This document shows positions 717 through 59,810 of a stretch of DNA of 64,000 bases, piece by piece (positions within the stretch are counted from its first letter, which is position 1; each line of letters starts with the position of its first letter). The notes beneath the pieces are model-generated. The model did not search any database. It saw only the letters and a program-made list of their open reading frames with translations, and had not been told where the DNA came from. Source of the DNA: Lama guanicoe (Eukaryota). The translations under genes and the position numbers were made by a program. The stretch covers positions 557,687-621,686 of the forward strand of contig MU054575.1 in the NCBI GenBank assembly GCA_013239625.1, given 5' to 3'.

Positions 717-1106
<390 letters not shown>

Positions 1107-3384: not shown

Positions 3385-3737
3385 ACGTGAGTCTCCTCGG
3401 GCCGTAACGAAGTCCACAGACGGCGGCTCAAACAACAGGCAGTCACTGTCCGCAGTCCTGGAGGCTGGAATCCGAGGCCTAGGCGTGGGCAGGGCCGGCT
3501 CCTCCTGGAGCCTCTCTCCTCAGCGTGGAGACGGCCGTCTGCTCCCCGTGTCCTCACGTGGTCGTCGCTCTGCGTGTGTGTCTGTGTCCTGATGTCTTCT
3601 TGTAAGAACGCCAGGCCTGTGGGATTAGGACCCACGCTAGTGACCTCATTTTACCTACTCACCCAAGTGCAGTCACACTCTGGGGTGCTGGGGTTAGGGC
3701 TCCAACACATGACTTTGGGGGCACAGTTCAGCCATAA
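3385..3737 (-). mobile_element. MLT1-type solo LTR
   Basis: aaacaacagg...cagtcctggaggctggaatccgagg...ggattaggacccac...gacctcatttta...gtcacactctggggtgctggggttagggctccaacacatga. Confidence 0.85.
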
Positions 3738-13239: not shown

Positions 13240-16200
13240 GGGCACGTTCAATGCGTGGAGACCGCCACATTTAAAACATTCAGTTGGATCAATCTTGACA
13301 TGTGTAGACACCAGGGGACCACCGCCAGTGTCAGAAGAGCAGAGGTGTCCTCATGACCCTTGGGATCCCCCCACACACACAACTCAGGAGGTAGCCACTG
13401 ATCTGCCCGACGGCGGAGACTGATCTGCACTTTCTGGCGTCCTCGGTCAATGGACTCACACAAGAGTGCTCCTTCTGTCGGGCACCGTGCCCTCGGCATC
13501 GCTGTTCTGAGGCTCGCCCAGGCAGTGGCGTGCACCGGCAGACCATTCCTTTTGCTGCTGGCTGGTATTCCTCTGTGTGGACGGAGTGCAGTCTGTTCAC
13601 ACGGTGGTGGGCACTTGGGTCATTTCCAGTTCTGAGCTGTTGTAAATACGTTTGCATTCAAGCCTTTGTAAAGACCTGTACGTCTTTTTTCTTGGTAAAT
13701 ACCTGGGGACAGAGTGACGGGTAACATGGTCGGTGTTTGTTTGCCCGTGTAAGAAACCGATGAACCATTTTCCCAGGTGGCTGTACACTTCCCAGCCCCA
13801 CGGCCGCGTGAGAGTTCCAGTTCCTCCACTTCCTCACTCGCGTGCGGTCATCCTGGTCTTTTCCATTTTGGCCAGTCTGATAGGTGGGTAGTGGTACCCC
13901 ATTGGGTTCTGACTCTTGTTTTCAAATGACTAATGATGTGGGGGTCTTTTCGTATGGTTGATTGGCCTCCATATAACTTCTTTCGCGAAGCATTTTTCAG
14001 ATCTTTTCCCCATTTAAAAGTTGAGCTGCTTGCCTTGTGAGAGGCTTGTAAAAGTTCATTATGTATTCTAGACACATGGATATGTTTTACAGATATTGCC
14101 CCCCGTCTATGGCTTTCCTTCTCGCTTATTTAACAGTGTCTTTTAAGGACTAAAAGATCACAATTCTAATAAAGTCAAATTTATTGCTTTTTCATTTTTT
14201 ATGCTTTTCATGCTTTTAATGGCATATTTAAGAAATATTTTACCAAACACGTGATTACGAAGATTTTCATCTGTGTTTTCTTCTGGTAGTTTTCGTTTTA
14301 GTGCCTACGTTTAGGTCCATGAGTTAATTTTTGTATACCATGTAAATTACAGGCTGAAGATCTTAATTTTTTTATATGAGCGTCCAACTGTTCTGGTGCC
14401 ATATGCTCAGAAGAGTGACCTTTACCCATTGAATCACCTTGGCACCCTTTTAAGTATGTAATTTAATAAAAATGTGGGCCTATTTTTGGTAACTGTATTC
14501 TGACCCGTCGGTCTGTTGGTCTGTCTTTGTGCTGACACCACACTGCCTTGGCTACTGTGGATTTGCAAAGAGTCCTAAACTGAGTTGAGGCAAATCCTCC
14601 AACCGTGTCCTTCTCTTTCAAGTTGTTCCAGTTATTCCAGGTCCTCTGCACTTCCTTATGAATTTTAGAAGCTTCTTGCCAATTTTTAGCCCGGTGGGGT
14701 TTTGAAATTTTATTGAACTCCAAGATCAGCGAGGGCAGAAACAACCTCTCAGCATTCCTGGATCTTCCCACCATGAAGACTGTATCTGTCTCCATGTATT
14801 TAGATCTTTAACACCTACCAGAGACGTTTGGTAGTTTTCGGTGCAAGGTCTTATACTTCTTTTTTCAGACACCAAGTATCTCATATTTTTATGCTACTGT
14901 CGATGGTATTTCTGCGTTAATTTTGATTTCTGGTTGTTCATTGCTGGGATTTAGAGTTGTAATTAATTTTGGTGTATATATTTTATATCTCAGGCCTTTC
15001 TAACTCATTTCTAGTACTTTTTTTGTGGATTCTATTAATTTTTTTCTCACATTGACAACCATGTCTGCAAGTAAAGGCAGTTTCACCTCTTCCTTTCCAA
15101 TCTGGATGCCTATCTTTTTTCCTGCCTGATTGCACTGGCTAGCACCTCCAGCACGATATTTAATAGAGGTAGGAGGAGTGAACATCCTTGCCATCTTCCC
15201 AGTTGTAGGAGAAATCCCTTTAGTCTTTCACTACCATGAAATTACTAGGCTCCTGGAGATGTCCTTTGTCAGATTGTGGAATTTTCCCTTCTAATACTAA
15301 GGGTTGTTTATTTTAGCATGAACGGTTGTTGAAGTTTTCTCAAGTGCTTTTTCTACACCTCTTGAGATAATCATGTTTTTGCCTTCTTTAGCCTCAGTAT
15401 GCTGAATTGTATTGATTGAGTTTCAAAAGTGCTGCAACCAAGCTCGCATCTCTAGATACCCCTACTTGGTCACGCTCTCATACGCATTTATATATTGTTG
15501 GACTTAATTTGCCAAGATTTTACTAAGAAGTTTTGCATCTAAGTTCATGAAGCATATTGACCATAGTTTTCTCGTGATGTTTTTGGTTTTGGTGTCAGAG
15601 TAACCCAGGCATGGTAGTGTGTGCTGGGCCGTGCTCTCTCTTCACTTGGGGAGAAGGGCTGTATGTAACTGGCCTTATTTCTTCCCTGCGTGTGTGCTGA
15701 AATTCATCAGTGAAGCCATCTAAGCCCAGATTTCTCTTTGTGAGAAGGTTGTTGACTAGCGTTTTAATGCATTTAACAATTATAGTTGGGTTTTGTGTTA
15801 CTTTGTGAGCAGGCTTTGGTATATTGTGTGTTTGAAGGAATTTGTTCGTTTCACATATGATGTTAAATTTATTGGCACAAAGTTGCTCATAATATCTCAC
15901 TATTACTTTCTTTGACATTTGTAGGATTGTAGTAGTGTCTCATCTCTCATTCCCATATTGGTAATCAGTGCCTCTTTTTAAAAAAAAAAAATCATCAGTC
16001 TGGCTGGAGTTTTAGTGATTATGTTGATCCGAAAGAACCAACTTTTAACTTGAGGTTTCATTGGATTTTTTTTCTTTTTTGTTATTTCATTGATTTCTGC
16101 TCTGATTTTTATTGTTTTTTTCCTGCTTGCTTAGTTCTAATTCACTCTCCTTTTTCTGGCTTCTTAAGATAGAAGCTGAGGTCATTGATTAAAGATCTCT

Positions 16201-17200: not shown

Positions 17201-19504
17201 ATACGTTGGTATTTCAGGAGGCTTGTGCTTCCATTCTGAGGGTTACTTTTGTACTTACACCTTGAGCTTTCTGTAGTCTCTGTTTCCCACACACCCCTTC
17301 ACCCGGCTCGCTGGTGTCTGTCTGTAGCCTGTGACTCCCGCCTGTAGCCTGTACCACGTACAGTGGGCTTATTCCGTTTTCCTCTTCGATAAGGTTCAGA
17401 CCCCACAAACCCAGCATCAACATCTGAATACACAGAGGGCAAGAAGTGATGAGTGACATGGGAGGTGGGGGTCCTGGTGGCCTCACTGAGCAGGTGACTG
17501 TGTGACTCTGTGCAAAGGTGAAGGACTGAGCCCTGCATTTTGGGGGGAGATGTTCTTGGCAGAAGGGATGGTCCCACCAAGACCCAGAGCAAGTATGTGC
17601 CTGGTCCATGTTGGAGAGAGGAGGTCAGCCTGGCATGCAGGGTGTGGGGCGCTGCACACTGGGCTTTTCCTCTTGGGGGCCAGAGCTCAGCGTGGGGTGC
17701 CTCTGACCGTCGGAGGACAGGCTAAGGAGGGGCAGGCGGGCAGCAGCAGGGAGTGGGGAGGTGATGGAGAATGGCGGCTTGGACTGGAGGGTCCATGGAC
17801 GTGTGATTTTATTTTGATGACACATGTCGTGTGAGCGCAGAAACACTGATAGGAAGCATTTACACCCCAAATGTGGTTCCTTCTGGGGGGAAGGATAGGA
17901 GAAAGCTCTTACTGATTCCGTAACAGGTTTTATTTCTCAACAACAAAAAAAATCTGAACCAAATGTGGCAAAATGGAGAAAAACAAAGCAGGAAAGAGGT
18001 GGGAGCTTTTTCTTGTCATGCTATTTGCTATATTCTAAGGTCTGTTTTTAAAATTTCACATGGAACAAAGACCTCTCTCTCCACAGCTGAGAAATTTCCG
18101 CAGCACTTACATGCCCTTTCTCAGCCTCGTGGGTGCAGCGGGGCACCCTGGTATCTGCGGGGGTCGTGGGAACGTGTCTGCAAGTGGCTCGTCCTGCCGG
18201 GACATCTGCAGAGTTTGCCGACCCTTTGGGGAAAGCATTTCTGCAGGAGGTTTAATCGGTGTGGGGGGGGGGTGGCTTGCTGCATCCCAGGGTCGCTGGC
18301 CGTGAGCAGGTGTGTGCGTGTGTGTGCACACATCTGCAAGTTCATCGTGTGCTTGTGTGTGCGCGTTCCTCTGTGTGTGTGTGTCGCAGCCAGGCCCCGA
18401 GACAGCGGGCACGGGGACCCTCCGTCCGCCCCTGGCCCTGCACTGGGCCGTGAACGGGTGCAGGTAGAGGATGAGCTGGCTGGAAGGGAGCCGCAGGGTC
18501 TCTCACCCCCCAGCGCTGTCTTGTCACTGCCTTCCCCACCCCCACCTCGCCCTCTTTGGCATCCTGGTGCCCTCACCTGCTCAGCAGTTGGATGCTGGTG
18601 TTAGCTCCCAGATCTCAGTCTATATTCGGAGCCCCCGCACCCTGGGGGAAGGGGGCGTCTCAGCTGCCAGCTCCACGATGGAGGTGGTGGCCCACGAGGG
18701 CCCACAAGGGGCTTTGGAGGAGTGGGCTGGCACCACTCTGTCCCCCATCTAAGCTGCCCCAGGTGATGCCAGGGCTTCGCTTTCCAGCCCATTGCTGCCC
18801 GGCGTCCTGGCCGCGGCGGGTCCTGTTTCTGGAGGCCTCTGTGCCTGTTTGATGAGCAGTGCTCTTCCAGGAGCTGCTCCTGGGGGCCCGCTGTCAGCCC
18901 ACTCGGCCCCAAGGCCGGCTCTCCCACCCCCAAGTCCCCAGGATGGGAACAAGTGGCGGTCTGTGTGCTGCAGCCGCTCCTCCAGCAGGCAGGCCGCCCA
19001 GGCTCCAGCGGGCCGGGCCTGGGGACTCCTGGCGGGCAGTGGGCGGGAGTGGCAGCGCGTGGCCGGCTCGGGGCGCAGGGAGGCTCCTCTTCGGGCCTGC
19101 TGGCCCTCCTACGCTATGGACCTGGGGGCCTCGGCCCCCTGCCCGCCAGCCCTGCCGTGTGATCTCTGTCTCCCTCTACGCTTGTTGAGGGGAGACCTCA
19201 GGGCCACTTGGTGGGTAGGATGCGGGGGAGGGGAAGGCACCTCCTCAGGGCGGGAAGGTGGTCAGGCCTGGGGAGGGGCAGACTAGAGCCGGACGCGGAG
19301 TGTGCTGTTGCTGCCGTGCGGCCGGGCGACGGCGCAGACCTGGCGGTGAGCGTTTCCGCGCTGGGCCGGGGGGTGCGGGCAGCGGTCACAGGCCTCCCGC
19401 CGCACACGCCCCCCGCCCCCGACGGTGAGGAGAGCGCAGGACATGAGGGGGCGGGGCGTGTGCCCATAAAATATCCCCTTAAAATTAACGTTATAAAAGG
19501 AAGA

Positions 19505-19852
19505 GACTTTTTTGTAGCAGTTTCAGGTTTACGGGAGACCTGAGCAGGCAGCACAGAGTCCCCCCCGCCCCCCCGCCCCACGGCGCCCCCCGTCGCCAGC
19601 CTGGTGTGTCTGCCCAGGCGTTGGTTGTGATCACGCAGCACCGCCAACTCATCACTATTAACTCAAGTCCGCAGCTCACATTAGGGGTCCCGCTTGGGTT
19701 GCTCTTTCTGTGCGTTTTGACAAATGTGCAGTGACGTGTATCACGGCGTCGCCCGGAGTGGCCTGGCTGCCCTGAAGAGCCTCTGGGCCCCTGCTGTTCT
19801 CCCTCCCTCCCCCGGAGCCCGGCCACCACTGCTCTTTTGCCGGCTCCAGAAT
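19505..19852 (-). mobile_element. L1MC1-like 3' end, GC-enriched
   Basis: tttgtagcagtttcaggtttac...aagtccgcagctcacattaggg...tttgacaaatgtgcagtgacgtgtatc...ctgccctgaag. Confidence 0.7.
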
Positions 19853-20274
19853 CCACAAAAGCAGGCGGCTTGGCCATGGCGAAGCGTGAGGCCCTGGCTC
19901 AGACCACAGTGCGGGGAGGGAGGCTCTGCGCGCGGCTCGAGGGGCGCCCTGCCTCCCTCCCACCGTGCGGGCTCGAGCCTGGCGTGCGGGAATGCCCTGG
20001 GCTCCCAGGCACGTGTCCACCAGCGGCGGGAGGGGGCCCAGATCGGGCTGGCCCTTGACTGAGAGTGTCCCTGGAGTGAGGCGTCCCGTGTCCCCCCAGG
20101 ATGCATCTGGGCTTGGCGGCGTAGGGCTCAGAGCTCAGGCTCTCTGACCTGGGGCTCTGAGGACCTAGGCCACACATGCCTGTGACTGTCTAGGCGGGGG
20201 CTTCACTCTGTCCTGGGTCCGAGCTCTGCTGTCCCTTGTCCCTCATCCAGAGCGTGCCAGCCACGTGCCCCTCT

Positions 20275-20560
20275 CCCCAGGCTAGACGTCACCGGTGCCC
20301 ACTATGTGTGGACAAGACAGACTCAAATGGCCAATCAGATCTGGTCCCTGCCTTGTTTACAACCTCCAGAAGCTTCCCACGCTGTGAAAGGACACCCCTA
20401 CCCCTTGTGACCCACAAAGTCCCTTGAGGCGAGGTCTCTGCTCCGCTGGGCCAGCCCCGCCTCATGACACAGCCTCCCCGAGGTCTAGCCTTCATGCATG
20501 TCCATCAGGCCAGAGCTTGAACGTCACCTCCTCAGGGAGGCCTGCCCTGTGCCGTGTCCC
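20275..20560 (+). mobile_element. L2 fragment
   Basis: aatcagatctggtccctgccttgtttacaacctccag...cttgaacgtcacctcctcagggaggcctgccctg. Confidence 0.5.
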
Positions 20561-21569
20561 TCTGCCCTCCGCCGGGCCCCCTTGCCCTCCTAATGCACAG
20601 GTCCCCCCAGTCCTGGGGTCACTGTGCTGGGGCTTGCAGGGGAGGGTCCGTGATGTGGAGGTTGGGCCTTTCAGGCGGGGCCCCCTCGCCCTGGGGACCA
20701 GGGGCAGCAGTGTGGGTGGAGGAAGACAGCAGGCTCCGAGATCACAGGAGCAGGGCCACAGGGTCCCTGTGACCCTCTCCCAGTGTGTGCGGGGACGGGT
20801 GAGCTGGAACTCGCCTAACCAGGGCCTGGGGCACACTTCCCACGTGGCGACCCAGCCAACACATGAGCCTGGGTCCTCCGAAGGCAGATGGGCCACGGCC
20901 CGAGGGCACTCTGGGTGGGGGCCAGGTCAGGAGCTTCTGGAAGGAGCCTTCAAGGGCCCCCTCAGTCTTGGGATGGGCGACGGGGGACACTGGGCTCAGT
21001 GCAGGGCTGGGTTGCAAATGAGGTTGGGGTCCCAGGAGTGCGGTCTGGACGTCATCTGGGCTTCCGGCTTCATCGGCACCTATTTCCTGAGCATGCCCTG
21101 CGTGCTCGGCCTGGGGCCTGGGTGTGAAGCAGGGCGGAGAGAGCTGCCCACGGGGGCCTCTCCGTGAGAGAGGGAGCCGGGCAGCGAGGTGGTCAGTGAG
21201 CCGTGCGGGGACAGCGAGGAGGGCAGTGCCACGGGCAGTGGGGCGAGCCCTCCTGGGGAGGCGAGCAGGGGGCCAGTGGCACAAGTCCCTGTGCTGGGGG
21301 GCGTCTTGCACCTGGAGGCTCGGGGCTGTGGTCAGCGGGGGCAGGGGAGGCCGGGCCGAGCTCAGTGGACCTGTGAGGTCAGGCGTCGGCTCTGGACAGA
21401 TGGGGGCCGTTCCTCACTTAGAGTGGATTTATGGAAACCCCCCAAAGCAGAGCTGTGATTTAGAGCATCTCTTTTACCGTGTGAACTGGTCTTCTTTTTT
21501 TTTTTTTCCAAATAACCCATTTACTTATTCACCTCTTGGGTTGGGTTCGTGATTTTTCTGATTTCTTCT

Positions 21570-24175
21570 CATTTTCAATCTGGACTTCGGGCGGTGAGAT
21601 TCGCCCTCCTTTGGTGCAGAGATCCCTGCGCCCTGGCAGATGTGGACGGTTGTGGGTCGTCCCCCGGCAGAGACGCAGAGCGTTCCCACCACCCCCGGCA
21701 GCCCCTGTCTGCCCTTGGCGGCCCAACCAGCACCTGGTAATCACGGACGTTTCCTGTCCCCACAGTCCTGCCTTTTCCAGGACGTCATGGGAAAGGCATC
21801 CTGCATTCTGTAGCCTTTGTGTCTGGCTTCTTTCACTGAGCACAACACATTTGCGCCTCATCCATGTTGTGGCCTGTGTTCAGTAATTTGCTTCCTTCTA
21901 ATTGGAAAGGATACAACGTACCACGGTTTGTTTATCTGTCCGCAGGCTGACGGACGTTGGAGCTGTTTCCAGTTTTCGGCTGATGATTAAAGCTGCCTGA
22001 CTGCTGCCGTCAGGTTCTCTGCCTGGTCGTTCTGTCTTCATCGCTCTCGGGGAAGCCTCTGGGAGCTTGATCCTGGATGACGTGCCGCAGGCACGCTGAC
22101 CTTTCTAAGAAACGGCAAGCTGTTTTCCGCAGTTTGCTCCGCCGCGCCTTCCTTCCCTCTGTGTCTGGCCGCGCCTGCTGACCTGCGACCTCGGCATTCG
22201 CGCCGCCCGGCCGAGCGTCCTCACCACTGCAGTGCGTGCGCGGCCCCGTCCCGTGGCTTCGGCTGCATTTCCCTGGTGACCAGTGCCGCCGGGCACCTCT
22301 GCTGTGCTCATTTGCTGTTCCCACGTCTGCCTTTTGACCAAGTGTCTTCAGGGTTTGCCCATCCGCGTAACTGGGTCACGGGCCGCATTAGTGAGTTGCA
22401 AGGGCTGTTGTGTGTGTTCCAGGTACGAGTCTAGGCATTAGATTTCAATGACCAGATCTGTGTTTTGCAAGTTTTCCCCCAGTCTGTGGCTTCCCTTTGT
22501 TTTTTCTTAGCAGCATCTTTCAGATGAACAGAGGTTTTAATTTTGATGAAGTCCAGCTTTTCGGGTTTTTCCCCCAAGGTTCACGTCTTTTGTGTTCTAA
22601 GAACTATTTGCCTAGTCCAAGGTTACAGAGAGTCTTCTCCGCTGTTCCCTGTAGAAATCTTGTAGCTTTACGTTTTCTGTTTAGATCTGTGATCCATTTC
22701 GAGTGTAATTTTACCGACGGTGACAGGTCTGGATGGAGGTTAAACCTTTCTTGCACGTGGTTGTCCAATTGTTCCCGCACCTTTTTTGCATCAAATTAGT
22801 TTGACACCTTTGATGAAAGTCAGCTGACCATCTGCGTGGTCTGTTTCTAGACTTTCTAATCTGTCCTGCCACTACCACACTGTCTTGATTAATGTGGCTT
22901 TATAGTAAGCCTTGAAATCAGGCTGTGTTAATCCCTCAGTTTTGTTCATTTTCAAAAGTATGTTGGCAATTCTAGTCCTTTGCATTTCCATGTAAATCTT
23001 AGAATCAGCTTGTTAATTTCTCCCCAGAAGTCCTGCTGGGATTTTGATTAGCACCGTGTTAAACAGATGAATTCGGGCGTCCAACACATGACGCTGTTTT
23101 CTGACCGTGAACATGATGTGTCTCTGTACTTATTTAGGTGATTTTAAGTATCGCTCATTAATGTTTTCTAGTTTTCAGGGCACAAATCTCTCACATAATT
23201 TGTGTGATTTGTTACTGAGTATCTCTTGTCTTTGAAGCTACTGAGATGGCATCGTTTTCCCAAGTTCACTTCCGGATCATTGTTTGCTAGTCTGTGGACT
23301 TTGTATCCTGTGGCTTTGCTAACATTATTAGTTCTGGAACCTTTTTTTTTTTTTCTGGTTGACTCTTTAGACTTTCCTATAGAGATGATCACATTGTCCC
23401 ATAGAAAGTCAGTTTTATTTTTTCCTTTTCAGTCCTGTTCTTTTTATTTCTTGTTCTTGCCTGATACCCTGGCTGGGACCTCCACAGCAAGACTCCGTGG
23501 CGAGGAGAGAGCGGCCGTCCATGCCTCGTCCCTGACGTGAGGGGCACTCGTGGTCTCGCCGTCAGCACGACGCTGGCCCCGCGGCTTCGCACACGCTCTT
23601 CAGCAGCCGAGGAAGCTCCTTCACATCCTCGTACGCTGGGAATAAGGGTGGATGTTGGCCGTGGTTGCTGGATTTTGTCAGATGCTTTTTCTGCATCTAT
23701 TGAGATAATTCTATGTGCTTTCTTTCTGACTTGCATTAACATGGTGAACTACACAGACTGGTTTTCAAATGTAACCAGCCGAATTCTCAACATAAAGCCC
23801 ATCTGGTCACGATGCGTTTTGAAAGCGTGTGCCGCTGGATTTGACTTGCTAAACTGTTGTGTAGGTGTTTGCCTCTGTGCCCCGGGGGAGGTGTCTGTGG
23901 CTTGCTTGTAGCCTCATTGCTTTTGGCCTCAGGTAAGGCCAGCCTTAGAGAACGGGGTTGGTGAGTGTCTCTGCTTTCAGTTTAGGAAGAGTTAGCGCGT
24001 AATTGCTGTATTTCTCTGAGAGGGTTTGATCGGACATGCGACTCCATCTGGGCCTGGAGTCTTCTTTGTGGGAAAGCTTTTTTGTTAGAAATTCAGTGTC
24101 TTTCATAGATCCAGGACTATTCACGTTACCTACGTCTTCTCAAGTAACATTCCATAGTTCATGTCTGTGAAGGTA
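21570..24175 (-). mobile_element. Old L1 (3' end plus RT region), antisense
   Basis: Minus peptide HRIISIDAEKASDKIQQP (23389-23742); ttttaattttgatgaagtccag; gtctggcttctttcactgagcacaac. Confidence 0.9.
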
Positions 24176-25444
24176 TTTGTCCCCAAGGAGCCAGTGCCCC
24201 AGCCCAGACTGGAGACCAGACCAGCTTGTGATGGATGTCACTCCTGGGTGGCTTATGGGCAGCGGGCTATGCAGCTGTCCGGAGGCAGGGGACCTACGCG
24301 GTGCCCTGAGAGGGGACACAGGCTGGTGGCCTTTGGCCCCAGAGCTGCTCCACGCTCCCTCCCAGCCCCCACAGCTGCTGGCTCCTCGGCAGCCAGGTGA
24401 CAGGGCACAGTTGGGGGCGGCCGCACGTGGGGAGCCGAGGATCAGGCTTTCGGCCTTTCCTTCCGATTTCGCTCCCGGGAAGGCTGCCCCTCTCTGAGGA
24501 ATGAAACTCAAGTAGCGGGCCCTGCAAGGCCACGGCGAGTCTGCTTTTGTCTCACACTTTTACTCTGTAAACTTCAGCCCTAAAACAACACACATCCTCT
24601 GAAGCTGCTCACATATTAGCTCTTAAAACAGCAAAATCCGTGCACAATTTCCTCTCAATCCCTTAAAACATTCCTGAAAGGGGAAAAAAAAACTGTTTAA
24701 ATTCACGCCTGTCATTAAAATCTCTGAACATGCAGCATCGGAGCGGGTCCGCAGCAGTCAGGATACAGAGGCGCGGGGCCCGCGCACGCCGCACGTGTGC
24801 ACTGCACAAGGAGCCCCCGCACGCGCGTGCATGTGCTCGTGCACACATGCTTACACACACGTGCTCGCGCGCGGCCCCGCTGCACACGCCGGGGCGCCCT
24901 CTGCAGACGACGCGCCTTCTCAGCACGTGGACCGGTTAGTTCGGAAGCATCTTCCTCCCCGAGGTGCCTTCGGTTTGGTAAACGTCTGGTTCCGGGTAAA
25001 TTCTTACAGATGCTTTTAGAAGCTGGGGCTTCAGCAGATGAAAATGCTGCCCACCTGCCTCTTTCCCCCCTCTCGGAGTTGGCAGCCCTCCGCGTGGGGC
25101 TCCAGCCGGCGTCCAGCAGAAGGCGGCCCCCGCGGAGCCGGCCGGGGAGGACAGGGTGTGAGCTGGCTGCCCGGCGGCGGCATGGGGTTGCAGCCACGCG
25201 GCGGGGCCCAGGGCGCCGGACCCGCCTGCCCACAGCTTGGCGCCCGCCGGCCCTGCCCCGCGCCCACCTTTCCCCGGCGGGGCCTGGGCATCAGCCCGAG
25301 TGCCGCCTCCAGCACTGTGCGGTCTCCCGCAGCGCAGGTCCCCTTCCCAGGAGGACAGAGCTTCGGGGCCTACAGCTTGGACGTCCCCAAGGACCCTTGT
25401 CCAACCTTGGCTTGACCTTGGTGACGAGCCAGAGCCCCGGGCAC

Positions 25445-25825
25445 CACTGCTCCCTCCTCAAGCTGGGAGCCCATGATCAAGGTGTGGGTTGGGCGGGGCT
25501 GGTGTCTCAGGCTGAGAGGGAGCATCTGGCCGGGCCTCTCCCCCAGCTCCTGGTGGCTCCTTGTCGACCAGCGACATTTCTTGGCTATGGAAGCCTCTCC
25601 CCGATCTCTGGTTCACGTGCACGTGACATTCTCCTATGCGTGTCTGTGTCCTATGTCCCCTGTTTATAAGATACCAGTCATACTGGAGGGGGGCCCCCCC
25701 TAGTGACCTTATCTTAACTCTTCACCCTTGCAGTGACCTTATTTCCAAATAAGATCACATTCTGGCAGGTCAGGACTCCAACACATGAATTTGGGTGTGG
25801 GGGACACTGTGTCAACCCCGAACAG
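25445..25825 (-). mobile_element. MLT1-type solo LTR
   Basis: gatcaaggtgtggg...tttataagataccagtcatactgga...gaccttatttccaaataagatcacattctg...ggactccaacacatgaattt. Confidence 0.85.
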
Positions 25826-26949
25826 TGCCTGAGCTGGGCAAGCTGGCTGAGCAAGGGACGTTGGGGTCATTCCAATCTGCCGCCTGTTCTGCTGTGAGAG
25901 GTGGGCGGCCCTCGGTGACTGTTTCCGCCGGTTGTACCAACCGCCCAAGCCGGGTCCTGGGTTTGGTGCCGTGCCAGGGGCTCAGCCAGAGCAAGACAGG
26001 AGAGGCCCCGGTGCTCAGGCCCTACGTTCCGCTGGGTGTGGTGATGTTCCCGTGAGCCAGGAAACGCGGTGGTTCCCAGTACGGTGAGAGGACTGGGTGG
26101 TGGAGACAGCTGGTGTGGGGCTGGGCTGTCAGACCCTTGTGAAGGTGGCACTCGAGCTGGCACTGAGGGGAGAAGGGGGCCAAGGGGCAGAGGAGAAAGC
26201 ACAAAGGTGAGGCCCAGGGCAGGAGAGAGGTGGCCCCTGGGGACAGAAAGGTGGCTCTGTGGGTAGAGCTGCTGCTCCAGCCCTGTGTGCTCTTCCTCAG
26301 GGCCCCGGGCGGAGGGTGGCCTTGGGCACGGGCTGCAGGTGCAGATGCTCAGCAGGTGTGTGCTGAGTGACTCCCAGAGATGTCGGCTGCTCTCAGCAGC
26401 AGGCCTGTGAGGTGGCATTGCAGACGTGCTGCACACGGAGGCCTGGCACGCGGTAGGTGCAGCTGGATGGACAAGGATCCGGCTCTGGTGTTCCCAGCGC
26501 TGGGAAGCGGCAGGCTGGCCCGGCAGTTTCGGGTGGCGGGATCCCCCGAGCTGGGACCGGGATGGATACACAGAGGAAGGAAGGATGGGTGGCTTCCTTA
26601 TTTTTGTCTGCTTAGGAGGAAGACATTCCCAGACGCCTAAGTGCAGGTGTGCGCAGAGTTTCACCTCTTGAAATGTGGAAGCAAAAAACAAAAACCTTGG
26701 TTTATTCGGTTTCCAGGGTCTGAGGTTCTGAAGCCTGGTGCCCCGCATGTCTTGTCACAGCAGGCAGCCGCCAGAGCAGCTGTAGGGAAGGAGAGCAGAG
26801 TCCTCACAGCACGCAGACGTCCCCCAGTGAGCCACCACGTGTCCTCAGCCCTGTCCCCGAGACCTCGCCTGCCACACTGGCCCCCGCCTGTCCCCGCCAT
26901 CTGTGTCTGACCACAGGATGCTAGCTGGCGTCGAGGCGAAGGCAGTGTT

Positions 26950-30700: not shown

Positions 30701-32059
30701 CCACGGCTTATCGGGTCCCACGTGGAGGTGGGACAGCTGGCCCCAGAGCCCGCCGGCCGGACTCTGCTGGAGGACACGGCCTCCCATGGGGACGCCTCCT
30801 GGCCCGGGCAGGGCAGCCCGCACGTCCTCCCGGCTTGTGGAAGGAGGGCGAGGCCCTCACCCTGGTTGCCTGTGCCCCTGGCCCTGGTGGCCGTTGGTCT
30901 GGTCCCCCGGCCGCCCCTGTCTGCTAACATCGCGGGCACCCCGGACGCCTTTTAGAGGGCCAGGAGCTCCTGCAAGGGGCCCCCAGGCCCTGTCCCCGAG
31001 CCGGCCTCTTCTGGCGTCCACAGGGCTGCCGGGAGGGCGGGGTGCCTGTTGTCCTTGACCCCAGTTCCTGCCTCTGGTCGGCCCCTGCCCCTCGGCCCCG
31101 AAGGCCTCGGCACGCACTTCCCCGCAGTTCCTCTTCCAGCCCTCTTTGAAATTAACTTTCCATCATGAAGATAGCAGAGCAGTGACACACGAGCCCCGGG
31201 AGGAGGATAAGGATCTGCGAGGCTTCCTTTGCGGTTTAGCGAAAAACAAGGAAAAATCTTTCATCTGAAGTGTCAGGGTACAAGCAGAGGCGACATGAGC
31301 GAGCTTGACCTTCAGGCCGTCTCGCTATCTGTCACATGGGGGCCGCGTTCCGCGGGACGTTCGAGGCGGGTGACGCCGGCAGCGCTGAGCCTCAGAGCAC
31401 GTGGGCTTTAGACAGGCTCCCCAGTGGATGACGAGGGTTGATGAGCTGATAAAAGTGAGACGGCAGATAAGACGGCCTCGTGGACCTTCATCCTTCTCCG
31501 GGCAGCGGTGGTGCCACTAGGATTACGAAATGCCCAAGGAATCCGCAACCTCTCCCCTTTGTGTCCTCGGGTAGACAGCCCAGATAAGCACCTGCTCTTC
31601 TAAACCTTTATCTTGGCTCTTGGGATTTGCAGATCTGCCGTCACCCCAAAACGCCACAGGCGGGTGCGGGCGGCGCCCCTCGCTTGTGCCTTGGTCCAGC
31701 TCGGGAGTCCCAGCGTCCATCTGCTAAAGGCAGGGCCTCTGCACGGGGAGCAGCTGAGGCAGCACGGTCCCGGGGGTCCGTCAGCAGCCAGCGCGACCCG
31801 CTGTGCCCCGTGGCCGCCCAGCTCCTGCGCACCACTCCCCATCCTGTCCTCACGGTGGGGATGTGGCCGCGCCCGCGTGACGCTCGCAGTCAGTTGCTGC
31901 GCTCAGTTTGCTGGTTTAGTACTGAACTAACCACGGGCCACGAGGATTAAGAGCCGGGGGCCCAAGGACGACTGTGAGGCAAAGCTCCCGGCCACGCTTT
32001 CTGCCCGATGAGGCCGCCCCGAGGGCCCGGCGCACAGTGCGTCCGTGTGGCGGGGAGAC

Positions 32060-33075
32060 ACACAGCATACAGGCCACCGCTCTCACGCGCACAGTTCCGT
32101 GGCGTTTAATATATCAATACCATTGTGCAAACACCACTTCAGTCTCGTTGCGGAGCTTTGCCATCACCCCTAAAGGAAGCACCGTACCCGTCAGCAGTTG
32201 CCCCCCGTTCCTCCCCCACCCCCGGCCCCTGGCAACCACCAATGGGCTTTCTTTTTATTAAAACTGTCGTAGAACACATAGGACATAAACTTTGGCATCT
32301 CAGCCATTTTTAAGAGCACAGTTCAGAGGCATTAAGTGCATTCTCACTGCTGAGAAACCATCACGTGGGCCATCCCCAGAACTTTCCATCTTTCCAAACA
32401 GAAACTGCTTCTGGAAACATCCCACTTTCTGTTTCCACGTCTGACTTCTCTGGGGACCTCCCATGAGTGGAATCGCACAGGATTTGTCCTTCCGGGTCTG
32501 CATTCTTTTCACTGCACGGCACGTCTCTGAGGCGCACCCACGCGGTAAATGCGTCAGGATCTCCTCCCTCCTTATGGCCGAATAACATTCACTTATGGGT
32601 GAACCACACTTCGCTTTCCTGTTCACCCTTCAGGGCGCCCTCGGGGTGTTTCCACGTTGTGGCTGTTGGAAACAGGGCTGGGAACCTGGGTGTGCAAATA
32701 CCTGCTCGAGTCCCTGTTCTCACTTCTTCTGAGGACGTACCCAGGACTGGGGCCACGGGTCACGTGCTGTTTCTGCTTTCAGCCTTTTGGGGGGAGCTGC
32801 TGTGCTCTCCTCCCCAGCAGGCGCGCCGTTTTGTATCCCCACTGGCAGTGCACAGGTTTCCGATTCCGCCACATCCTCACCATCACTTACTTCATTTTTC
32901 TGGAGGTACCCCCCGTGGTGGGTGTGAGGTGGGCTCTCATCGCGGTTTGGTTTGCGTCTCGAGATGACCAGTGAGGCTGAGCACCTTTTCAGGGTCTTAC
33001 TGACTGGGCGTCTGTCTTCTCTGCAGAAGTGCGTCTTCAAGTTCCCCACCCATTTTTTAACTGGGTTGTTTGTTA
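32060..33075 (-). mobile_element. Two adjacent L1MA/MB-like 3' ends
   Basis: catcacccctaaaggaagc...cccctggcaaccaccaat, then a second tail at about 32250 (ccatttttaagagcacagttcagaggcattaagtgcattc) continuing into ORF2 C-terminal sequence. Confidence 0.8.
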
Positions 33076-35184
33076 GGAACTTTATTTTTAAAAAAGGATT
33101 CTAAATTGCACAAGTAACGCCGCTGAGAGCCACCCCCAGGCCCCCTGCTTGTGAGACGCTGGGGGAGCCTAGGATCTCCTGACCTGAAACTCACGGAGGA
33201 GGGGCTCAGCCCCTGGGTGGGGGGCTCGCTGCTGCTCGGAGCCTGGACGGACGTCCCTGTGTCTGCGCCCCGGCCTGCTTCTGGCAGGCAGTGAATTCTC
33301 AGGTCTGTGCCCTGGTGTCAGCGCCCAGCCGGCCCAGAGGCCCCTGGTCCATGAGGCCAGCTGCAGCTGGGAGGCGACCTTGCTTTGTTTGGGGACAGTG
33401 GCCAGGCGGGAGGGGGCCCTCTGTCCCTCTGGTTGACTGTGGTCTTAGCGGAGATCCCCGACCCAAGGACGGGGCAGAGCTCAGGGCTGTGCTCCAGCCG
33501 CCCCCTTGACCTGCGCACACAGCCGGGCATGCAGGCTTCACGTGGGGCTCGCTGAGGGGGGGCCCCGGGCCAGCTCTGTTATCAGTGGGTGCCTGCGGTG
33601 CACTGAGAAGGGTGTGAGGACCTGGGGGCAGGGAGGAGCAGGAAGGAGAGTGTCCCAGACACAGAGCACTCGGACCGGGGCTGGGGGGCGGGGAGGGGTG
33701 CCCTAGGTCCGTAGGAGGCTCTCAGGTGGGCCGACCTGAGCCCAGACCCTCGGTGCAGGCAGCAGGGAGCCAGGGCAGTGGCTCGAGCAGTGGGGAGGGG
33801 CCGGGAGGGGTGACAGCAGTTGGCAGGCTGCGGGGGGACTTCAGGCTTCTTCCTTCTCGTCTGGGGCTTGCTGGGGGCCTGGTGCAGGGGACCCAGAGTG
33901 TGGAGGGTGGCCCGCAGTGGGGGTCACCCTTTTGGGTCTGGACCCCTGAGGCTGGCCTCCCGTTACCCAGAGCTGAGAGCAGGCAGCCCTGCCCTTCCGT
34001 GAGCCTGCTCTGACGGCGAGTGTCAGGGGTAGCCCCACGGGGTGACCTAGGGGTCAGCCTTCCTGCTGGCCCTACCCCCCCACCACCACTCAAAGAGCCC
34101 ACAGCAGCCCCTGGTCCAGGGTGGCCAAGGCCCCTCTGGTGAAAAAATCCCTGAGTCCCTGCTGGTCCAGAACTTCAGGTCAGCCTGTCCGGCCCTCCCG
34201 GGACCCAGGTCAGTGGACAGGGGGCTCCAAGAGATGGTGATGGGCCAGGCTGACCAGGACACCTGGCCTGTGGGTGCCTGGGCCACAGGGAGCCCCAGGC
34301 GTCCAAGTGAACGACGCCCAGTCCTGGGGTCCTGGCCTTGACCCCAGGTGCATCCCACCCAGCACTTGAGGCTGACGGTGGTGATTTGATCTCGGAGCAA
34401 ACGTTGGTTCCCACTGTCCCAGGCTCTGTCCCGCCCGAGGGCCAGCAGTGCCACACCGATGTGCAGCCCGGCCAGGCCTGGGGCTCAGAGACACGGTGAA
34501 CACCCGGTGCGGCCCCTCGAGCCGCATTCCAGACTCAAATAGGATTTGGGGGTTCGCATTTAAAGAACTATTCCTGCGCCTCCTTCCTGCAGAGGGAGGA
34601 TCCCCCAGCCTCAGCCTGCCAGCCCCAGGAGGGCGAGGGGAGCTCTGAGCGTGAGACCAGGATGATGGGGGGACACGCCGTCCACAGCAATCCGTGGCGG
34701 TTATTTATCTTAAGGTCTGTTGTAAGATCGCGCTACAGACCTGTCAGTCATAAGGCTTCTGCCACTTCCAATGTGCTTAGGACGCGGCCGGAGAAGGTAC
34801 TTAAGTAGTAAGATGAGCATCGGAGTAAGAAAAAGCCTGCTCGGGGATCGATCCGCCTGAGGGTGTGTGGATTTACGGAGCTGAGCTGAGGCTCTGGGGC
34901 TGCCCTTCAGGGGCTTTGTTCATCCCTTCGGGACCACCAGTGGTCTGTGAAGATGCCAGCGCTGGAGTCTCAGCTTTGGGGACCCGGGGGTGGTCGCTCT
35001 GTGGCCCTTGTCATGATGGCCAAACACTGGGAGCAGGCCCCTCTGCCCCACCTCCGTTCACTGCCAGGACCTTGGCTGTCACCTGCTCATCACGCCAGCT
35101 GAAAACCGGCTGGGCCAGAATCCTGGGAAACACACGAGCAAGAGGAAGCTTTTGTACCGGGAGCTCAAGGCCACGGCACAGTCT

Positions 35185-35849: not shown

Positions 35850-37743
<1,894 letters not shown>

Positions 37744-44570: not shown

Positions 44571-46016
44571 CCCGGCAGCAGGTGGCTCTGCGTGTGGGGG
44601 GCGTGTTCCTGGGGGACAGTGGCATTGCAGGGAAAGGCTCCTCGTGGCCATTGCAGGAGATGGCCCCCAGGTCCTGGGGCCACAGACGGGCGTGTGCTGG
44701 GCACCGGGCGGCCTGGGCTCCCTGGTCATGGAGGCTGAAGCGTGTGCCTGGTTTCCCCACAGCGTCGAGCTCGCTGGCGTCCCTCAGGCCCTCACCAGGT
44801 CCTTCCTGCTCCAGACTCAGTCACCTCTGCTTCCTGAAGGCCTCCCACCTCTGCTCTGGTGCTTCTGAGCTGTCGCGTGTACAGCGTGTGTCCGGCCCGG
44901 CTGTGAACACCGGGCTTCTCTGTCCCCTCCCTCCCCACCCCCGTGGCTGGTGGGCTCTCTGCGGGGCTGGAGTGGGCCCTGCCGCAGGACTCGCTGCTTC
45001 TTGTCAGGCCTAGCCTTCCATTGGAATCTGCTAAATGGGCCGCCCCAGGCCCTGCCTCCGTGTCCCTCTCTCCCTGTGCTGGCCTCGTGGACCGGGGGTT
45101 TGCATGGAGGTCCCACACAGGGCTCCCTGAGCTGCCGGGGGCCGTTCTCATGTGGCCTGGAGGAGAGAAGCAGGGCTGGCAAGACCACAGGGTGGCAGGC
45201 GCCAGACTGACCGCCACAGGTGGGGAGCCTGAGGGACACTCTGGGCCATCCTGCCCGCTGCCCTGGTGTGCAGGTTGAGTGCGTGTGCTGGAAGGTGGAG
45301 CTGTGACCCCAGGCACCCTGGGTCCCCTTGCCAGACCCAGAGCCAGCTCCTCAGATCAGAAGCCCCGCAGGCAGCCCCACGGCCTAGACACTGGTGTGGG
45401 CAGGTGTGGGTGGCCTGGCTGGCATGGCCAGGCTGGGCTCCGAGCCCCTGCAGGATGTCCTTGTCATGCTCAGGCTGGAGGCCCAGGGAGCAAACCTCAA
45501 TGCCAGGGGGAGGCAAGCCTGGTGTGGGAGCGGGAGCAGCAGGGATTGGCCCCCACTCCCAGTGCCCCCCTCCGATGGACAGCTCCCCCACGGAGGAGGA
45601 GGAGCGGGCTACATCTGGTGCTCTCAGGGAAGAGGACAAAGGGAACATCCGGTGCCCGGGTGGCGTCAGGAAGTGGTGTGTCATCCCCGGCCGGGCTCCC
45701 TGTCGGGGACGGGTCCCAGTGGGAGCTTCCGGCCTCCTCGGGGCCGGAGCACAGCGACATCGGTGGCCTGGGTGGCAGGCCTGCTCGGGATGGGGCCGCG
45801 GAGGCCACGCATGTCCTCCTGTGGGCCCTGTCCCCCGTCGGTGCCAAGCTCCCGTTGATTTGGGAACCCGGTCCCGCCAGGCTCTGGCACTGACCCTTGA
45901 GCCACACAGCCACTCAGTGCTGGCTCTCCCCTGGCCTCTGCTGGCAGGGCAGCAGGTCTCGGGTGCAGGGGGTCAGGAGCACGGACGCCCGTCCAGGGCT
46001 CGGGCTCCACCGCTGA

Positions 46017-46487
<471 letters not shown>

Positions 46488-46594
46488 TAGGGAGCGGGCG
46501 GGCCCGCACTGAGGCCTGGAGGTGGTGGGGGGGCCCTGAGCCAGGTCCTTTCTGGAAGTCACAGGTCCTGAGCACTGAGACCTTCCAGCTCACT

Positions 46595-46875
46595 CTGTGT
46601 GTGTGGAGGGGTGCGGCAGTTGTGCGGTGCTGGGCGTGGGTGTGCACTGTGGGTTCCGCGTCACGCAGGCTGTGTCCACGTTTGCGTGTGTGTGTGTGTC
46701 GTTTATACATGTACCATGTGGGTACACACTGTGTGCATATCTTACATGTGTGCTCCGTGGGGGTCACGCTAACGTGTTGCATGTGTATGTGTGTCTGCAC
46801 GTGTGTGTGCAGTGTGTCAAGTAGCTCTGGTGTGGTAGGTGTGTGCATGTGGGCGTGTACGTGTGTAAGCGTGTC
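46595..46875. repeat. Long degenerate (TG)n tract in intron 7
   Basis: About 280 bp of interrupted tgtg repeats. Confidence 0.8.
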
Positions 46876-47123
46876 TGCTTTAATCCCCTCCATGGGCAGG
46901 GAGCTCCCTACACGAAGGGCCGGCCCTTTTCCCCGCATGAGCGATCCTGGGTGGCAGCGGTGTCCTGCTCGGGGTGGGGGGAGCTGCATCTGCGGGGCCC
47001 GCAGCACTGGGCAGGCCTGGCTTTCCCGAGCCCGCGACCGGGTGCCCAGACCATCTCCCCGACTCCCACGTCCAGGGGACACGTGTCCATGTGGACGCGA
47101 GCCCTGCTTTCTGCTCCCCCCAG

Positions 47124-56269: not shown

Positions 56270-59200
56270 TCAAAGAGGAAATAAAATCCCAAATTAGAGA
56301 ATATTTAGAAAAATAATAACAGAAACACTCCTCATCAGATCCCATAGCATATAAAGTATTTGAAGGATTATTGAGCCATGAATTGTGTATCTAAATATGA
56401 CTTCAAGGCCCATCAGCAAAAAGGAAAAAATAATGAATAATACAAAAGGAGAAAGAAACCCACAATTAGAGGTGGTGATTTTAATAAAGCTGTCTCAAAA
56501 GCGGATAGAACAAGCAGACAGAAAGCAGGAAGGGTACAACCTTGAATGGCACCTCCAGCCAAGCCGACCTAGTTAACACCTAGAGACCTCTCCTCCCAAC
56601 AGTGGCAGAGAATATGCTGTTTTCAAGTGCGCACGGGACACAGACCAAGACAGACCATGTTCTGAACCATAAAGCAAATCCGATAAACGTAAAATGACTC
56701 AAGTGATAGATAAAGAATGTCGTCTAACCACAGTGGAATTAAACTGAAAATCAATAAGAAAAAAATCTCTGGAAAATCCTCAACTATTTGGAACCCAAGT
56801 AACATGTTTCAAAACAGCACAGTGTCAGAGAAGAATTCCAGATGAAAACTCGAAAGTGTTTTGAACCGAATGAAAATGAAAACACAGAGTATCAAAATGT
56901 GTCGTCTCTGCTGCGGGCAGCACTCAGGGGCCGTGCGGTGTCCCAGCGCGGGCGCGAGAGACATGGTCTCCGTCAGCCTCAGCTTCACCCCCAGAAACGA
57001 TCACAGATAAGTAGAAACAGGGCAGCCATAAAGATCAGAGGGGAAACAAATGAAATAGAACACACAGAAACAAAATAATTAAACCAAAAGCTGTTTGTTT
57101 GTTTGTTTTAAAGACAGTCAGCACAACTGATAACCCTCTGCGCAGACACGTCAGGAGAAAAAGGAGGTGCAGATTATGAGAAATGAGAGCTATGGTGGTG
57201 CAGAGTCTACGGATGTGAAAAGGGTCATAAGGGAATACTGTCTACAGTTCTTTAAATTCAGCAGCTTAGATGAAATGGGCAAATTTCTTGAAAGGCGTAA
57301 ACTACTCAAGAAATAGATAACCTGAATAGGTCTCTATCTGCTAATAAAATCAAAGTTATAGTTCAGAACATTTCCCCAGACAGCACTGCCGGATCACATG
57401 GCCTTACTGGGGAATCCTCCCAAACACTTAAGAAAGAATAAAATCAATTTTAGACACTGTTCTCTAGAAAATTGAAAAGGAGGGAATACTTCCAAACGCA
57501 TTGTGAGGCCAGCGTTGTCCTGATCTGAAAACCAGCCAAAGATATTATAAGAAAAGAAAGCTACAGGTAAGAATCCCTGATGAACATACACACAAAAAAA
57601 TTCTAAGCCGAAGTTTAGCAAATCAAATCCAGTAATACATTAAAAGGATCACACATCATGACCAGCTAGGGCTCAGGAATGCAAAGCTATTTTGATATTT
57701 TAGAAAATCAGCCAGTTAGCCATATTGACAAATGAAAAAACCATATGATCATCCTAATAGATGCAGGAAAAGAATTTGACAAAATCCAACACCGATTTTT
57801 AAGCAAAGGTTCTCAGCAAATGGAAAGTTAAAAGGAACTTCCTCAACCTGATCAAGATTATCAGCAAAAATTTACAGCTGTAACATACTTAATGAAGAAA
57901 GACTAACTGCTTCCCCCTCTACGGTCAGGAACACAACAAGAATCTGCTCTCATCATTTCTAGTTAACACTAAACTGAAGATGCTAGCCAGTGGAATAAGG
58001 CAAGAAAAAGAAACTTTAGACAGCCAGTTTGGAAAAGAAGTAAAACTGTCTTTATTTGCAGATGACATGGTTATCTATGTAGAAAGTCTGGTGAATGCAG
58101 AAGATGACTACTAGAACTAGTGTGTGAATTTAGCTTTCTGGCAGATAGAAGACTGATAGGCAGAAATCAACTCTGTTTCTGTCCTCAAGCAGGAAATACT
58201 CTGAAATTGAAGTTTTAAAAATAGAGTCATATAAAAATATGAAATAATTAGAGGTTAATATGACAAAAGATGTGAGAGCTGTGCATCTCACACTGCTGAG
58301 AGGAATTAAAGAATATCCAAATACTTGCAGAGGTGTACCATGTCCATGAATCACAAGCTTCAATATTAAGCTCTACACTCAATGCACTGCCAGGCAAAAT
58401 CCCGGCAGGTATTTTGTAGAAATTAACAAGCTGGTTCTGAATTCACATGGACATGCATATGACCTAGAACACCGAAACAACTTCGAAAATGAACAAAGTT
58501 GGAAGAAAAACACCAGCAGTGTGGCATTAGCATCAAGGTGAGCAAACAGATCAACAGAACAGTGTTGAGAGTGCAGATAAGCCTATACATTTATGGGCAG
58601 CTGACTTTTGATGAAGGTGCAAAGCCAATCTGGTGGAGAAAGGATAGTCTTTGAACAAAGAGTGCTGGAACAACTGGACATCCACATGCCAAAAACCCAA
58701 CTTCCATCTACCTCTCACATCACAGACAAAAATTAACTCAGAATTTATCATAGACTTCAATGTAAAGCCTGAAACTTTTAGAAGAAAACACAGTGGAAAA
58801 CATCTTTGTGATCTGAGCTAAAGACTTTAGACATGACACCAGAAGGAAAAGCCACAATCAGAACAACATGACTGAACTTACCAAAGTCACAACCTTCACT
58901 TTGAGAGACACTATTAAGAGAATGAAAAGACAAACCAGAGATTGGGAGAAAATGTTTTCAAACCACACAGCTGACAAAGGACTTGTATCCAGAATATATG
59001 AGGGACACTTAATGACTGAGCAACAAGAAAAGAAAGAAAAATGGGCAAAAGGTTCGAACAGACACTTCATCTAAGAAGATACACAGGCAAGCACATAAAA
59101 AGATACTCAGCATCATTAGGTTTTAGAGAAATGCCAACTAAAACCATGGTGAGATGCTGCCACACAGTTAACATACAGGCTGAAATTAAGAAGACTGGCC

Positions 59201-59810
59201 ACACCAAGGGCTGGTGGAGAAACTGGAACTCTCATGCTCTGGCAGGAATGAGAAATTGCTTTGGAAAACCATTTGGCAGTTTCCCAAAATGTTAAATACA
59301 TACTTGCCCTATGATGCAGTCGTTCTGTGCCTAGGTGTTTGTCCAGGAGAAATAAGAGCAGACACACGTACCAACCCACGAACGGGGCGTGTTCACAGCA
59401 GTTTTATGAAGACTGGACACAACCCCAATGCCTGTCAGCATTTGCATATTTTTTTAAGCCCATGCAATGGGCATCACTCAGAAGTGAGGCGTTAACAGCC
59501 CAGATGAACCTCACAGTGATGCTGATGAGGGAAAGAAGCCAGACAGGAAAAGAGCACATGAAACTCGAGAAAATGCAGACAAATCCAGAGTAATAAGAAG
59601 ATCAGTGGTTAACTTGGGACAAGGGTGAGGGGCACAGGGACAGTGCTGGGAGGAGGGGTACAGGTGGGGACAAGGAACCTTTGGGGGGTGATGGCCATGT
59701 TCAGCACACGTTAAATCATATGCATCAAACATGCAGTTGGCCATATGTCTGTTATGCCTTAATGGGAAAATATATAACATAAAAATATTTCTCATAACAA
59801 AAAAATACCA
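56270..59810 (+). mobile_element. Old L1, about 3.5 kb, ORF2 plus 3' UTR, sense to KCNQ1
   Basis: tctaaccacagtggaattaaactgaaaatc (SNHSGIKLKI); tctttatttgcagatgacatg (SLFADDM, RT motif); KRMKRQTRDWEKMFSNH (58868-59074); A-rich. Confidence 0.93.

Follow-up and report, generated by a model that had tools for sequence, protein, structure and literature searches.

The question raised by this locus is how one piece of an old L1 element came to be rich in GC and CpG. The window, i.e., the whole stretch of guanaco DNA that was analyzed, has a length of 64,000 nucleotides (G000:C3434:557687-621686, genome assembly of 2.05 Gb). In a sequence-only reading, a sharply bounded patch at positions 22000-22430 had been attributed to a long-lived recombination hotspot, at which GC-biased gene conversion (gBGC) replaced A/T by G/C.

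The window has 60-70% GC for the most part, and its AT-rich islands coincide with L1 copies. The gene was identified as KCNQ1 by its pore exon, the sole Pfam match among 262 stop-to-stop frames (125 on the plus and 137 on the minus strand). The exons which we take to be numbers 2 and 3 were placed by short-motif matches, and based on these placements the patch lies inside KCNQ1 intron 2 (Table 1). Zero matches were found in the Pfam scan of the frames overlapping the patch, which therefore seems to have no coding role. The patch-bearing repeat is presumably an L1 of the L1M type with an age in the order of 100 Myr. It is present in high copy number, with thousands of first-look candidates genome-wide, and 58 paralogous loci were taken from the same genome by two AT-rich queries, 29 each. 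The paralogues are 72-85% identical to their majority state, and subfamily clustering of the L1 3' ends resulted in just two small groups, the focal copy being placed in neither. An assembly gap of 90 N bases is located in window positions 45001-50000, near the pore exon. Fourteen public runs contain 81-94% of the words sampled from positions 19500-26500, and the shares of 0.09-0.20 in the RNA rows constitute no evidence of expression.

Table 1. Features of the window (W, A/T; S, G/C; W>S and S>W, changes per site of the first class).
Feature	Position	Strand	Evidence and values
KCNQ1 exon 2 (approximate), bounding the host intron upstream	955..1046	+	short-motif match in translation
Paralogous L1 copy (13.7-kb control), moderately shifted, most at its 3' end	13480..15590	-	W>S 0.27 over the patch segment and 30/63 at 13480-13574
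T run, likely poly(A) tail of the patch-bearing L1	21495..21507	-	sequence; putative role
Old L1 copy (3' part) holding the patch, antisense to KCNQ1	21520..24143	-	profile matches; probable orientation from T-rich plus strand and T run at left end
Second W>S peak, same L1, near its 3' end	21588..21703		W>S 43/76, S>W 1/37, profile of 3' ends
Main W>S peak, graded	21995..22405 (best-fitting box)		centre about 22,210; decay ~200 bases each side; W>S 125/259, S>W 16/144
Third W>S peak, same L1	23480..23640		W>S 42/86, S>W 3/55; 67% GC, 18 CpG, o/e 1.0
Fourth copy of the L1 segment, missed by the sequence-only reading, strongly shifted	32495..33110	-	W>S 0.37, S>W 0.18
Fragment of a more internal L1 segment, W>S peak at about 36230-36510	35850..36755	-	W>S 81/182, S>W 8/96, columns 1601-1900
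KCNQ1 exon 3 (approximate), bounding the host intron downstream	36931..37057	+	short-motif match in translation
KCNQ1 pore exon (exon 7)	46038..46151	+	Pfam Ion_trans_2 E 1e-8; top PDB matches KCNQ1, E 5e-18
Paralogous L1 copy, opposite orientation, least shifted in the window	57300..59550	+	W>S 0.23 in the same segment

Two profiles of the L1 were used, the first consisting of 29 genomic paralogues and the second of 87 segments over 2,174 columns, on which all substitution counts are based. Matches of the first profile flank the patch at 21817-22133 (columns 3-330) and 22453-24143 (columns 649-2494), leaving a gap of 319 bases for 318 missing columns. The global alignment of the patch to the profile scored 624.5, compared to 183 +/- 23 (maximum 300.5) for 300 shuffles and to a maximum of 244 for 102 unrelated GC-rich pieces of the window aligned to the patch segment of the profile. 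The hardest core at 22134-22264 scored 113.5 against at most 106 for controls. Due to this colinearity and an alignment far above shuffles, the patch is homologous to the L1 and was not inserted into it, and it can be confirmed that the same L1 segment occurs at all three places which had been named in the window. Its identity to the majority state is down to 0.52-0.65, local searches skip it and plain BLAST fails to detect it, so that a profile is required. GC richness is not found in the consensus either, as the majority state of the segment has only 36% GC.

The substitutions were counted over profile columns 195-620 (about 22000-22420) and polarized by the paralogue majority state. For comparison, those 46 of the 87 paralogous segments were kept which cover at least 300 of these columns. 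As the paralogues are the best matches to AT-rich queries and also contribute to the majority state, this baseline is biased low; the contrast between the patch and the remainder of its own L1 is unaffected by the selection of paralogues. As described before, the patch (22000-22430) is rich in GC (62%) and in CpG (36, o/e 0.87), and the DNA to its right, from about 22430, is AT-rich again (42% GC). The other two copies are AT-rich in composition as well (13690-14070 with 47% GC and 13 CpG, 58960-59350 with 42% GC and 2 CpG), but the 13.7-kb copy is itself shifted (0.27 vs. 0.125).

The substitution spectrum is clearly unbalanced. Counting along the patch gave 125 W>S changes at 259 sites and 16 S>W changes at 144 sites, whereas the remainder of the same copy (columns 620-1700) shows 143/675 and 56/304, respectively (Fisher p 1.6e-15 for W>S and 0.054 for S>W). 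In the 46 paralogues, the same columns have a W>S of 0.125 +/- 0.037 (largest 0.29), an S>W of 0.236 +/- 0.048 (smallest 0.16, compared to 0.11 in the patch) and a GC content of 0.35, with 49% in the most GC-rich of them. The two-state equilibrium GC (GC*) amounts to 0.81 for the patch, 0.53 for the rest of the copy and 0.35 for the paralogues. The W>S excess persists in well-conserved columns (107/227, 86/185, and 56/137 at 70, 80, and 85% paralogue agreement) and with an ancestor made from the 9 nearest of 31 eligible paralogues (W>S 115/241, S>W 11/121). In the core at 22185-22292, W>S is 0.61 and S>W 0.05, which corresponds to roughly 1.0 W>S change for each A/T site. Among the 46 genomic paralogues, the strongest W>S shift (0.29) is that of L041 (G000:C3990:13365-16545), located ~15 kb from the start of its contig.

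The shift is symmetric between the strands, with A>G at 33/87 equal to T>C at 62/172 (p 0.79), which argues against RNA editing or a transcription-coupled bias. Transversions toward G/C are increased three- to five-fold (A>C 0.14 and T>G 0.10 vs. 0.03 each), and A<->T changes are not elevated (0.027 vs. about 0.04). G<->C changes are elevated (16/144 vs. 15/304, p 0.027), which would not be expected of pure gBGC, and in almost every simulated scenario they reach or exceed the upper limit; pooled, the GC-conservative changes A<->T and G<->C amount to 23/403 vs. 43/979 (p 0.33). The G<->C excess may be due to multiple hits, slight misalignment or recombination-linked mutation. Across 111 windows of the locus, G<->C rises alongside the W>S shift from 0.045 to 0.076 (Spearman 0.21, p 0.029).

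The patch contains 31 aligned CpGs, compared to a median of 2 and a maximum of 12 in the 46 paralogues. Only one of the 31 stands on an ancestrally CpG-like site; the other 30 are new, and 14 of the 31 required two changes, starting from TA or TT. Sites which are not CpG-capable show a W>S of 43/93 and an S>W of 4/68, compared to 0.13 and 0.23 in the paralogues. As the bias is also present at these sites and the CpGs are mostly new, the CpGs are a result of the shift and not its cause. The CpG o/e is about 0.86-0.98 in the patch vs. about 0.47-0.5 in the GC-rich DNA around it. This is compatible with germline hypomethylation, but simulated active gBGC on methylated DNA reaches the same value.

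In contrast to the first description, the patch is not sharply bounded. In 50-base bins from 21820 to 22519, W>S is 0.19, 0.26, 0.33, 0.28, 0.47, 0.41, 0.45, 0.70, 0.56, 0.45, 0.39, 0.43, 0.25, and 0.19, i.e., it climbs from ~0.2 at 21820 to the maximum of 0.70 at 22170-22219 and has dropped to 0.2 again by 22470. The best fit is that of a two-sided exponential (centre 22,210, decay 207 bases) with an AIC of 871.6, followed by a Gaussian (875.5), a box at 21995-22405 (878.2) and a constant (933.4). The likelihood ratio of the best box is 62.8, with a maximum of 21.3 in 300 permutations. Nevertheless, the sharp-edged box is rejected in favor of the peak (AIC 878.2 vs. 871.6), since none of 60 data sets simulated from a box preferred the peak as strongly as observed, while 30 of 60 simulated from a peak were at or below the observed preference. 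Such a graded fall-off would be expected of conversion tracts spreading out from a fixed centre. In human non-crossovers, G/C is reported to be passed on 68% of the time (PMC4404656).

Further shifted segments were identified in the same L1 and around it. The second and third peaks lie ~570 and ~1,350 bases from the main one, and the alignment of 21588-21703 scored 209 compared to at most 160 in 300 shuffles. Outside the window, 82 kb downstream of the patch, a twin of the same L1 3' segment (G000:C3434 ~661,498-662,077) has 70% GC, 65 CpG (o/e 0.92), a W>S of 214/362 and an S>W of 25/210. Its whole-segment alignment scored 691 vs. a maximum of 221 in 200 shuffles, although two of its six 100-column blocks taken alone fail to beat shuffles. 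The patch had been called the clearest example of a recurring pattern, which is correct among the L1 windows within the 64 kb, but over profile columns 1-620 the twin is stronger (W>S 0.58 vs. 0.41).

In the 234 kb around the window, the profile gave 40 local matches, and 20 locus copies, hand-chosen by length or colinear joins, were aligned. Their W>S per 200 columns ranges from 0.12 to 0.72, whereas the pooled genomic paralogues stay at 0.10-0.14 throughout, without a peak at the patch columns; the peak is therefore not a property of the L1 segment. In the 16 L1 copies of this region which include the 3' segment, the shift correlates with the GC content of the flanks (Spearman 0.79, p 2.5e-4). 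The patch shows no excess of shared derived states with any of 8 locus copies (smallest p 0.051), which argues that each copy was rewritten independently. Younger repeats of the locus are W>S-rich as well, with 17/112 vs. 50/695 for SINEs (p 0.009; 3 locus SINEs vs. 17 genomic copies) and 80/649 vs. 126/1638 for L1 tails (p 0.0007; 7 locus tails vs. 18 genomic copies), i.e., with 1.7-2.3-fold odds. The regional bias thus seems to have persisted into the later history of the lineage.

On a larger scale, 20 blocks of 20 kb were analyzed along the 6.8-Mb contig. GC is 0.59-0.66 and CpG o/e 0.38-0.47 in the first 0.4 Mb; over the final 0.8 Mb, GC has fallen to 0.43-0.57 and CpG o/e to 0.23-0.26. 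The eight blocks with L1 matches have a W>S of 0.21-0.38 up to 1.8 Mb and of 0.15-0.21 beyond. At the start of the contig, no telomere array was found. In human, KCNQ1 is located distally on its chromosome.

In addition, 26 patches of at least 200 bases with a GC content of at least 60% and a CpG o/e of at least 0.9 were found in the 234 kb, all but one of them 200-500 bases wide. Fifteen of them lie within the window, e.g., 2151-2650, 31851-32200, 52951-53300, and 62351-62950. Possibly, these 26 are further gBGC peaks. A CpG island of 1.1 kb (G000:C3434:~691237-692336) lies 87 kb downstream of the pore exon, in a position which, as we assume, fits the imprinting centre KvDMR1/KCNQ1OT1. Furthermore, three related old repeat copies, presumably MaLR-LTR-like, are located at window positions 3455-3722, 25613-25795, and 63258-63558; by eye, those at 3.5 kb and 63.3 kb are richer in GC and CpG than the one at 25.6 kb.

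The patch is an L1 piece in which about half of the A/T sites were shifted to G/C, most likely by gBGC at a repeatedly used recombination site near 22,200, the fixation bias being deduced from substitutions. Rewriting by gBGC, as first proposed, withstood three checks, as the spectrum is unbalanced, no insertion is present and the majority state is AT-rich. Meiotic recombination would initiate again and again near position 22,200, with putative breaks there, and repair of short heteroduplex tracts would favor G/C, leading to the fall-off over ~200 bases on each side. The G/C alleles would then be fixed by gBGC, likely over many millions of years. Such a site would have far outlasted a single PRDM9-type hotspot, and either its activity would have lasted into the last quarter or so of the life of the element, or methylation would have been lost afterwards.

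Strength and duration were estimated by a forward simulation tuned to the paralogue pool, with an assumed CpG multiplier of 8, a background B of 1 and a B uniform over the patch. Without gBGC, the simulated W>S is 0.11-0.12, methylated or unmethylated. A W>S of ~0.5 requires a B of ~8 for the last half, 12 for 30%, 35 for 10% or 400 for 1% of the element age, and a B of about 4-5 over the whole age also reaches this W>S but results in an S>W of 0.01-0.03, which is too low compared to the observed 0.11. For an episode ending at half age or earlier, with methylation thereafter, CpG o/e is 0.53 or 0.44 (upper bound 0.71) vs. 0.86 observed; an end at three quarters of the age is borderline (0.67, upper 0.87). 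An old episode with later loss of methylation also fits the simulated statistics. At an element age in the order of 100 Myr, a B of 15 would take roughly 20-25 Myr. In human, the 0.3% of the genome with the strongest gBGC is reported to reach a B of 9-15, and the age of hotspots not to exceed 0.7-1.3 Myr (PMC4510005). The required product of strength and duration is far above one lifetime of a human-type PRDM9 hotspot, which argues for long or repeated use, and by this model a long-lived or re-used recombination site is likely. The long-lived part of the first reading is thereby supported indirectly, via the simulated integrated strength. As a counterpoint, ancestral populations may have been larger.

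The PRDM9 gene of the same genome is of full length, with open exons for KRAB, SSXRD, and PR/SET (G000:C9322:4264779-4278127, minus strand), and the situation is therefore not that of canids. Its last exon comprises five complete zinc fingers and a natural-looking stop; the finger array may be collapsed in the assembly. The fingers differ from one another almost solely at the contact positions, which we take to be those contacting the DNA. An intact PRDM9 favors short-lived hotspots and speaks against a long-lived site.

Accordingly short-lived activity, with one or two very intense gBGC bursts like that of HAR1 at a transient PRDM9 hotspot, would require nothing long-lived. PRDM9 appears intact, the peak is narrow, and in the simulation a recent episode of 1% of the age at a B of about 400 matches all statistics as well as a long one. 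Large short bursts do exist, as in HAR1 the human branch alone accounts for 18 fixed differences, every one of them W>S (PMC2873926). However, a B of about 400 exceeds the highest values in human (PMC4510005) some 25- to 40-fold, and ~1.0 W>S change per A/T site in the core together with 14 of 31 CpGs needing two changes imply many successive fixations. The PRDM9 motif would have been eroded by conversion long before that, and the burst is rather improbable.

A germline-unmethylated orphan CpG island, whose composition would result from lost CpG decay or a local mutation bias instead of conversion, is considered very unlikely. The high CpG o/e relative to the surroundings and the small G<->C excess are in line with it. 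But 30 of the 31 CpGs are at sites which are not CpG-like in the paralogues, the bias is equally strong at non-CpG sites and in transversions, and an unbiased unmethylated simulation yields a W>S of 0.12 and 9 CpG. Hypomethylation or CpG retention as the sole cause is largely refuted by these new CpGs, the non-CpG bias and the simulation.

Still less credible is selection for a GC-rich regulatory element, i.e., an enhancer or CTCF site, in intron 2. The location in the imprinted KCNQ1 domain, whose CTCF sites are treated in published papers, would suit it, and base-wise change is reported to have given novel CpG islands at an imprinted locus (PMC3217256). It would have to account for 125 changes in one direction over 400 bases, a pattern which recurs across the locus in other L1 copies, in SINEs, and in L1 tails. 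Between 20575 and 24407, no CTCF core motif was found (at most 2 mismatches), and in the whole window CTCF-like motifs occur at chance level, with 50 matches vs. 49.97 expected.

Finally, three other origins can practically be discarded, namely insertion of a distinct GC-rich sequence, descent from a GC-rich variant subfamily of L1, or copying of a tract out of another GC-rich paralogue: the low identity to the majority state (0.52-0.65) and the skipping by local searches are set against exact colinearity and alignment far above shuffles for the insertion, 46 paralogues of which none is GC-rich there (largest 49%) for the variant, and, for copying, no shared-derived excess with any of the 8 locus copies (smallest p 0.051) and a genome search of limited sensitivity in which the patch matched itself alone.

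This leaves gBGC at a repeatedly used recombination site as the preferred reading. One stable hotspot and repeated short-lived ones are indistinguishable in a region which is shifted throughout, and given the locus-wide shift and the 26 CpG-rich patches, the patch may stand at the extreme end of what repeated random hotspots produce. A stable PRDM9-independent site is slightly preferred over re-use by changing PRDM9 alleles. Such a stable site would not be exotic, as 39 of 52 mammals recombine at PRDM9-independent loci, many with intact PRDM9, as reported by Joseph et al. (2024, PMC11161765). Speculatively, promoter-less stable hotspots might be born in camelids in dead, once AT-rich L1s despite a full-length PRDM9, and feed themselves via a gBGC micro-island, methylation loss and more breaks; this is doubtful. 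If true, the patch and its twin would show default hotspots and orphan CpG islands in the course of de novo formation, within an imprinted domain and from a known ancestral sequence. If the site is stable and unmethylated, it would help to test whether reinforcement between gBGC and hypomethylation creates default hotspots in species which keep PRDM9. The patch is a clean record, left by nature, of the extent to which gBGC can rewrite neutral DNA on a scale of a few hundred bases, with the ancestral state taken from paralogues, and of CpG-island-like sequence arising from scratch in an imprinted gene. Taken alone, it adds one more case of a process already described in detail.

Judged by titles and the openings of abstracts, no retrieved paper deals with gBGC in camelids, and none, as listed, with patches of this kind in LINE-1 or other ancestral repeats; both may nevertheless have been published. 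Kocher et al. (2024, PMC11170920) have proposed that gBGC gives rise to orphan CpG islands; unlike the islands described there, the patch has only ~420 bases and lacks known enhancer marks. In a human study, BGC was found to contribute little to the maintenance of methylated CpG islands (PMC4417305), which counts against the gBGC reading.

The full-length PRDM9 (KRAB, SSXRD, PR/SET, and zinc-finger array) is what PRDM9-directed hotspots call for. With the PRDM9-independent or default hotspots of Joseph et al. (2024, PMC11161765), the patch has in common a narrow GC* peak, CpG richness, a full-length PRDM9 and a presumed stability; camelids are named neither in the main text nor in the four text supplements of that paper, as available. 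The default hotspots are orthologues of hotspots of the mouse Prdm9 knockout, mostly promoter-like and of known hypomethylation, whereas the patch is an intronic L1, initially AT-rich and CpG-poor, and known from sequence alone.

The closest resemblance is to the gBGC tracts and W>S clusters of mammals, as described for phastBias tracts, accelerated exons (PMC2631073), HAR1 and the neighborhoods of HARs (PMC2873926). Like them, the patch is a W>S cluster below one kilobase with lowered S>W, and it is located in a GC-rich, probably distal chromosome region. Such tracts are measured on a dated branch, whereas for the patch paralogous repeat copies served as the reference and the entire age of the L1 as the time span. 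Compared to a tract of the human branch, the patch has far more changes per site, and it lies in non-coding repeat DNA. A W>S excess and an S>W deficit relative to the paralogues were found, independent of CpG, in transitions and transversions and symmetric between strands. Judged by the tests run here on its substitutions, the patch is a gBGC tract of the kind described by Berglund et al. (2009, PMC2631073) and Katzman et al. (2010).
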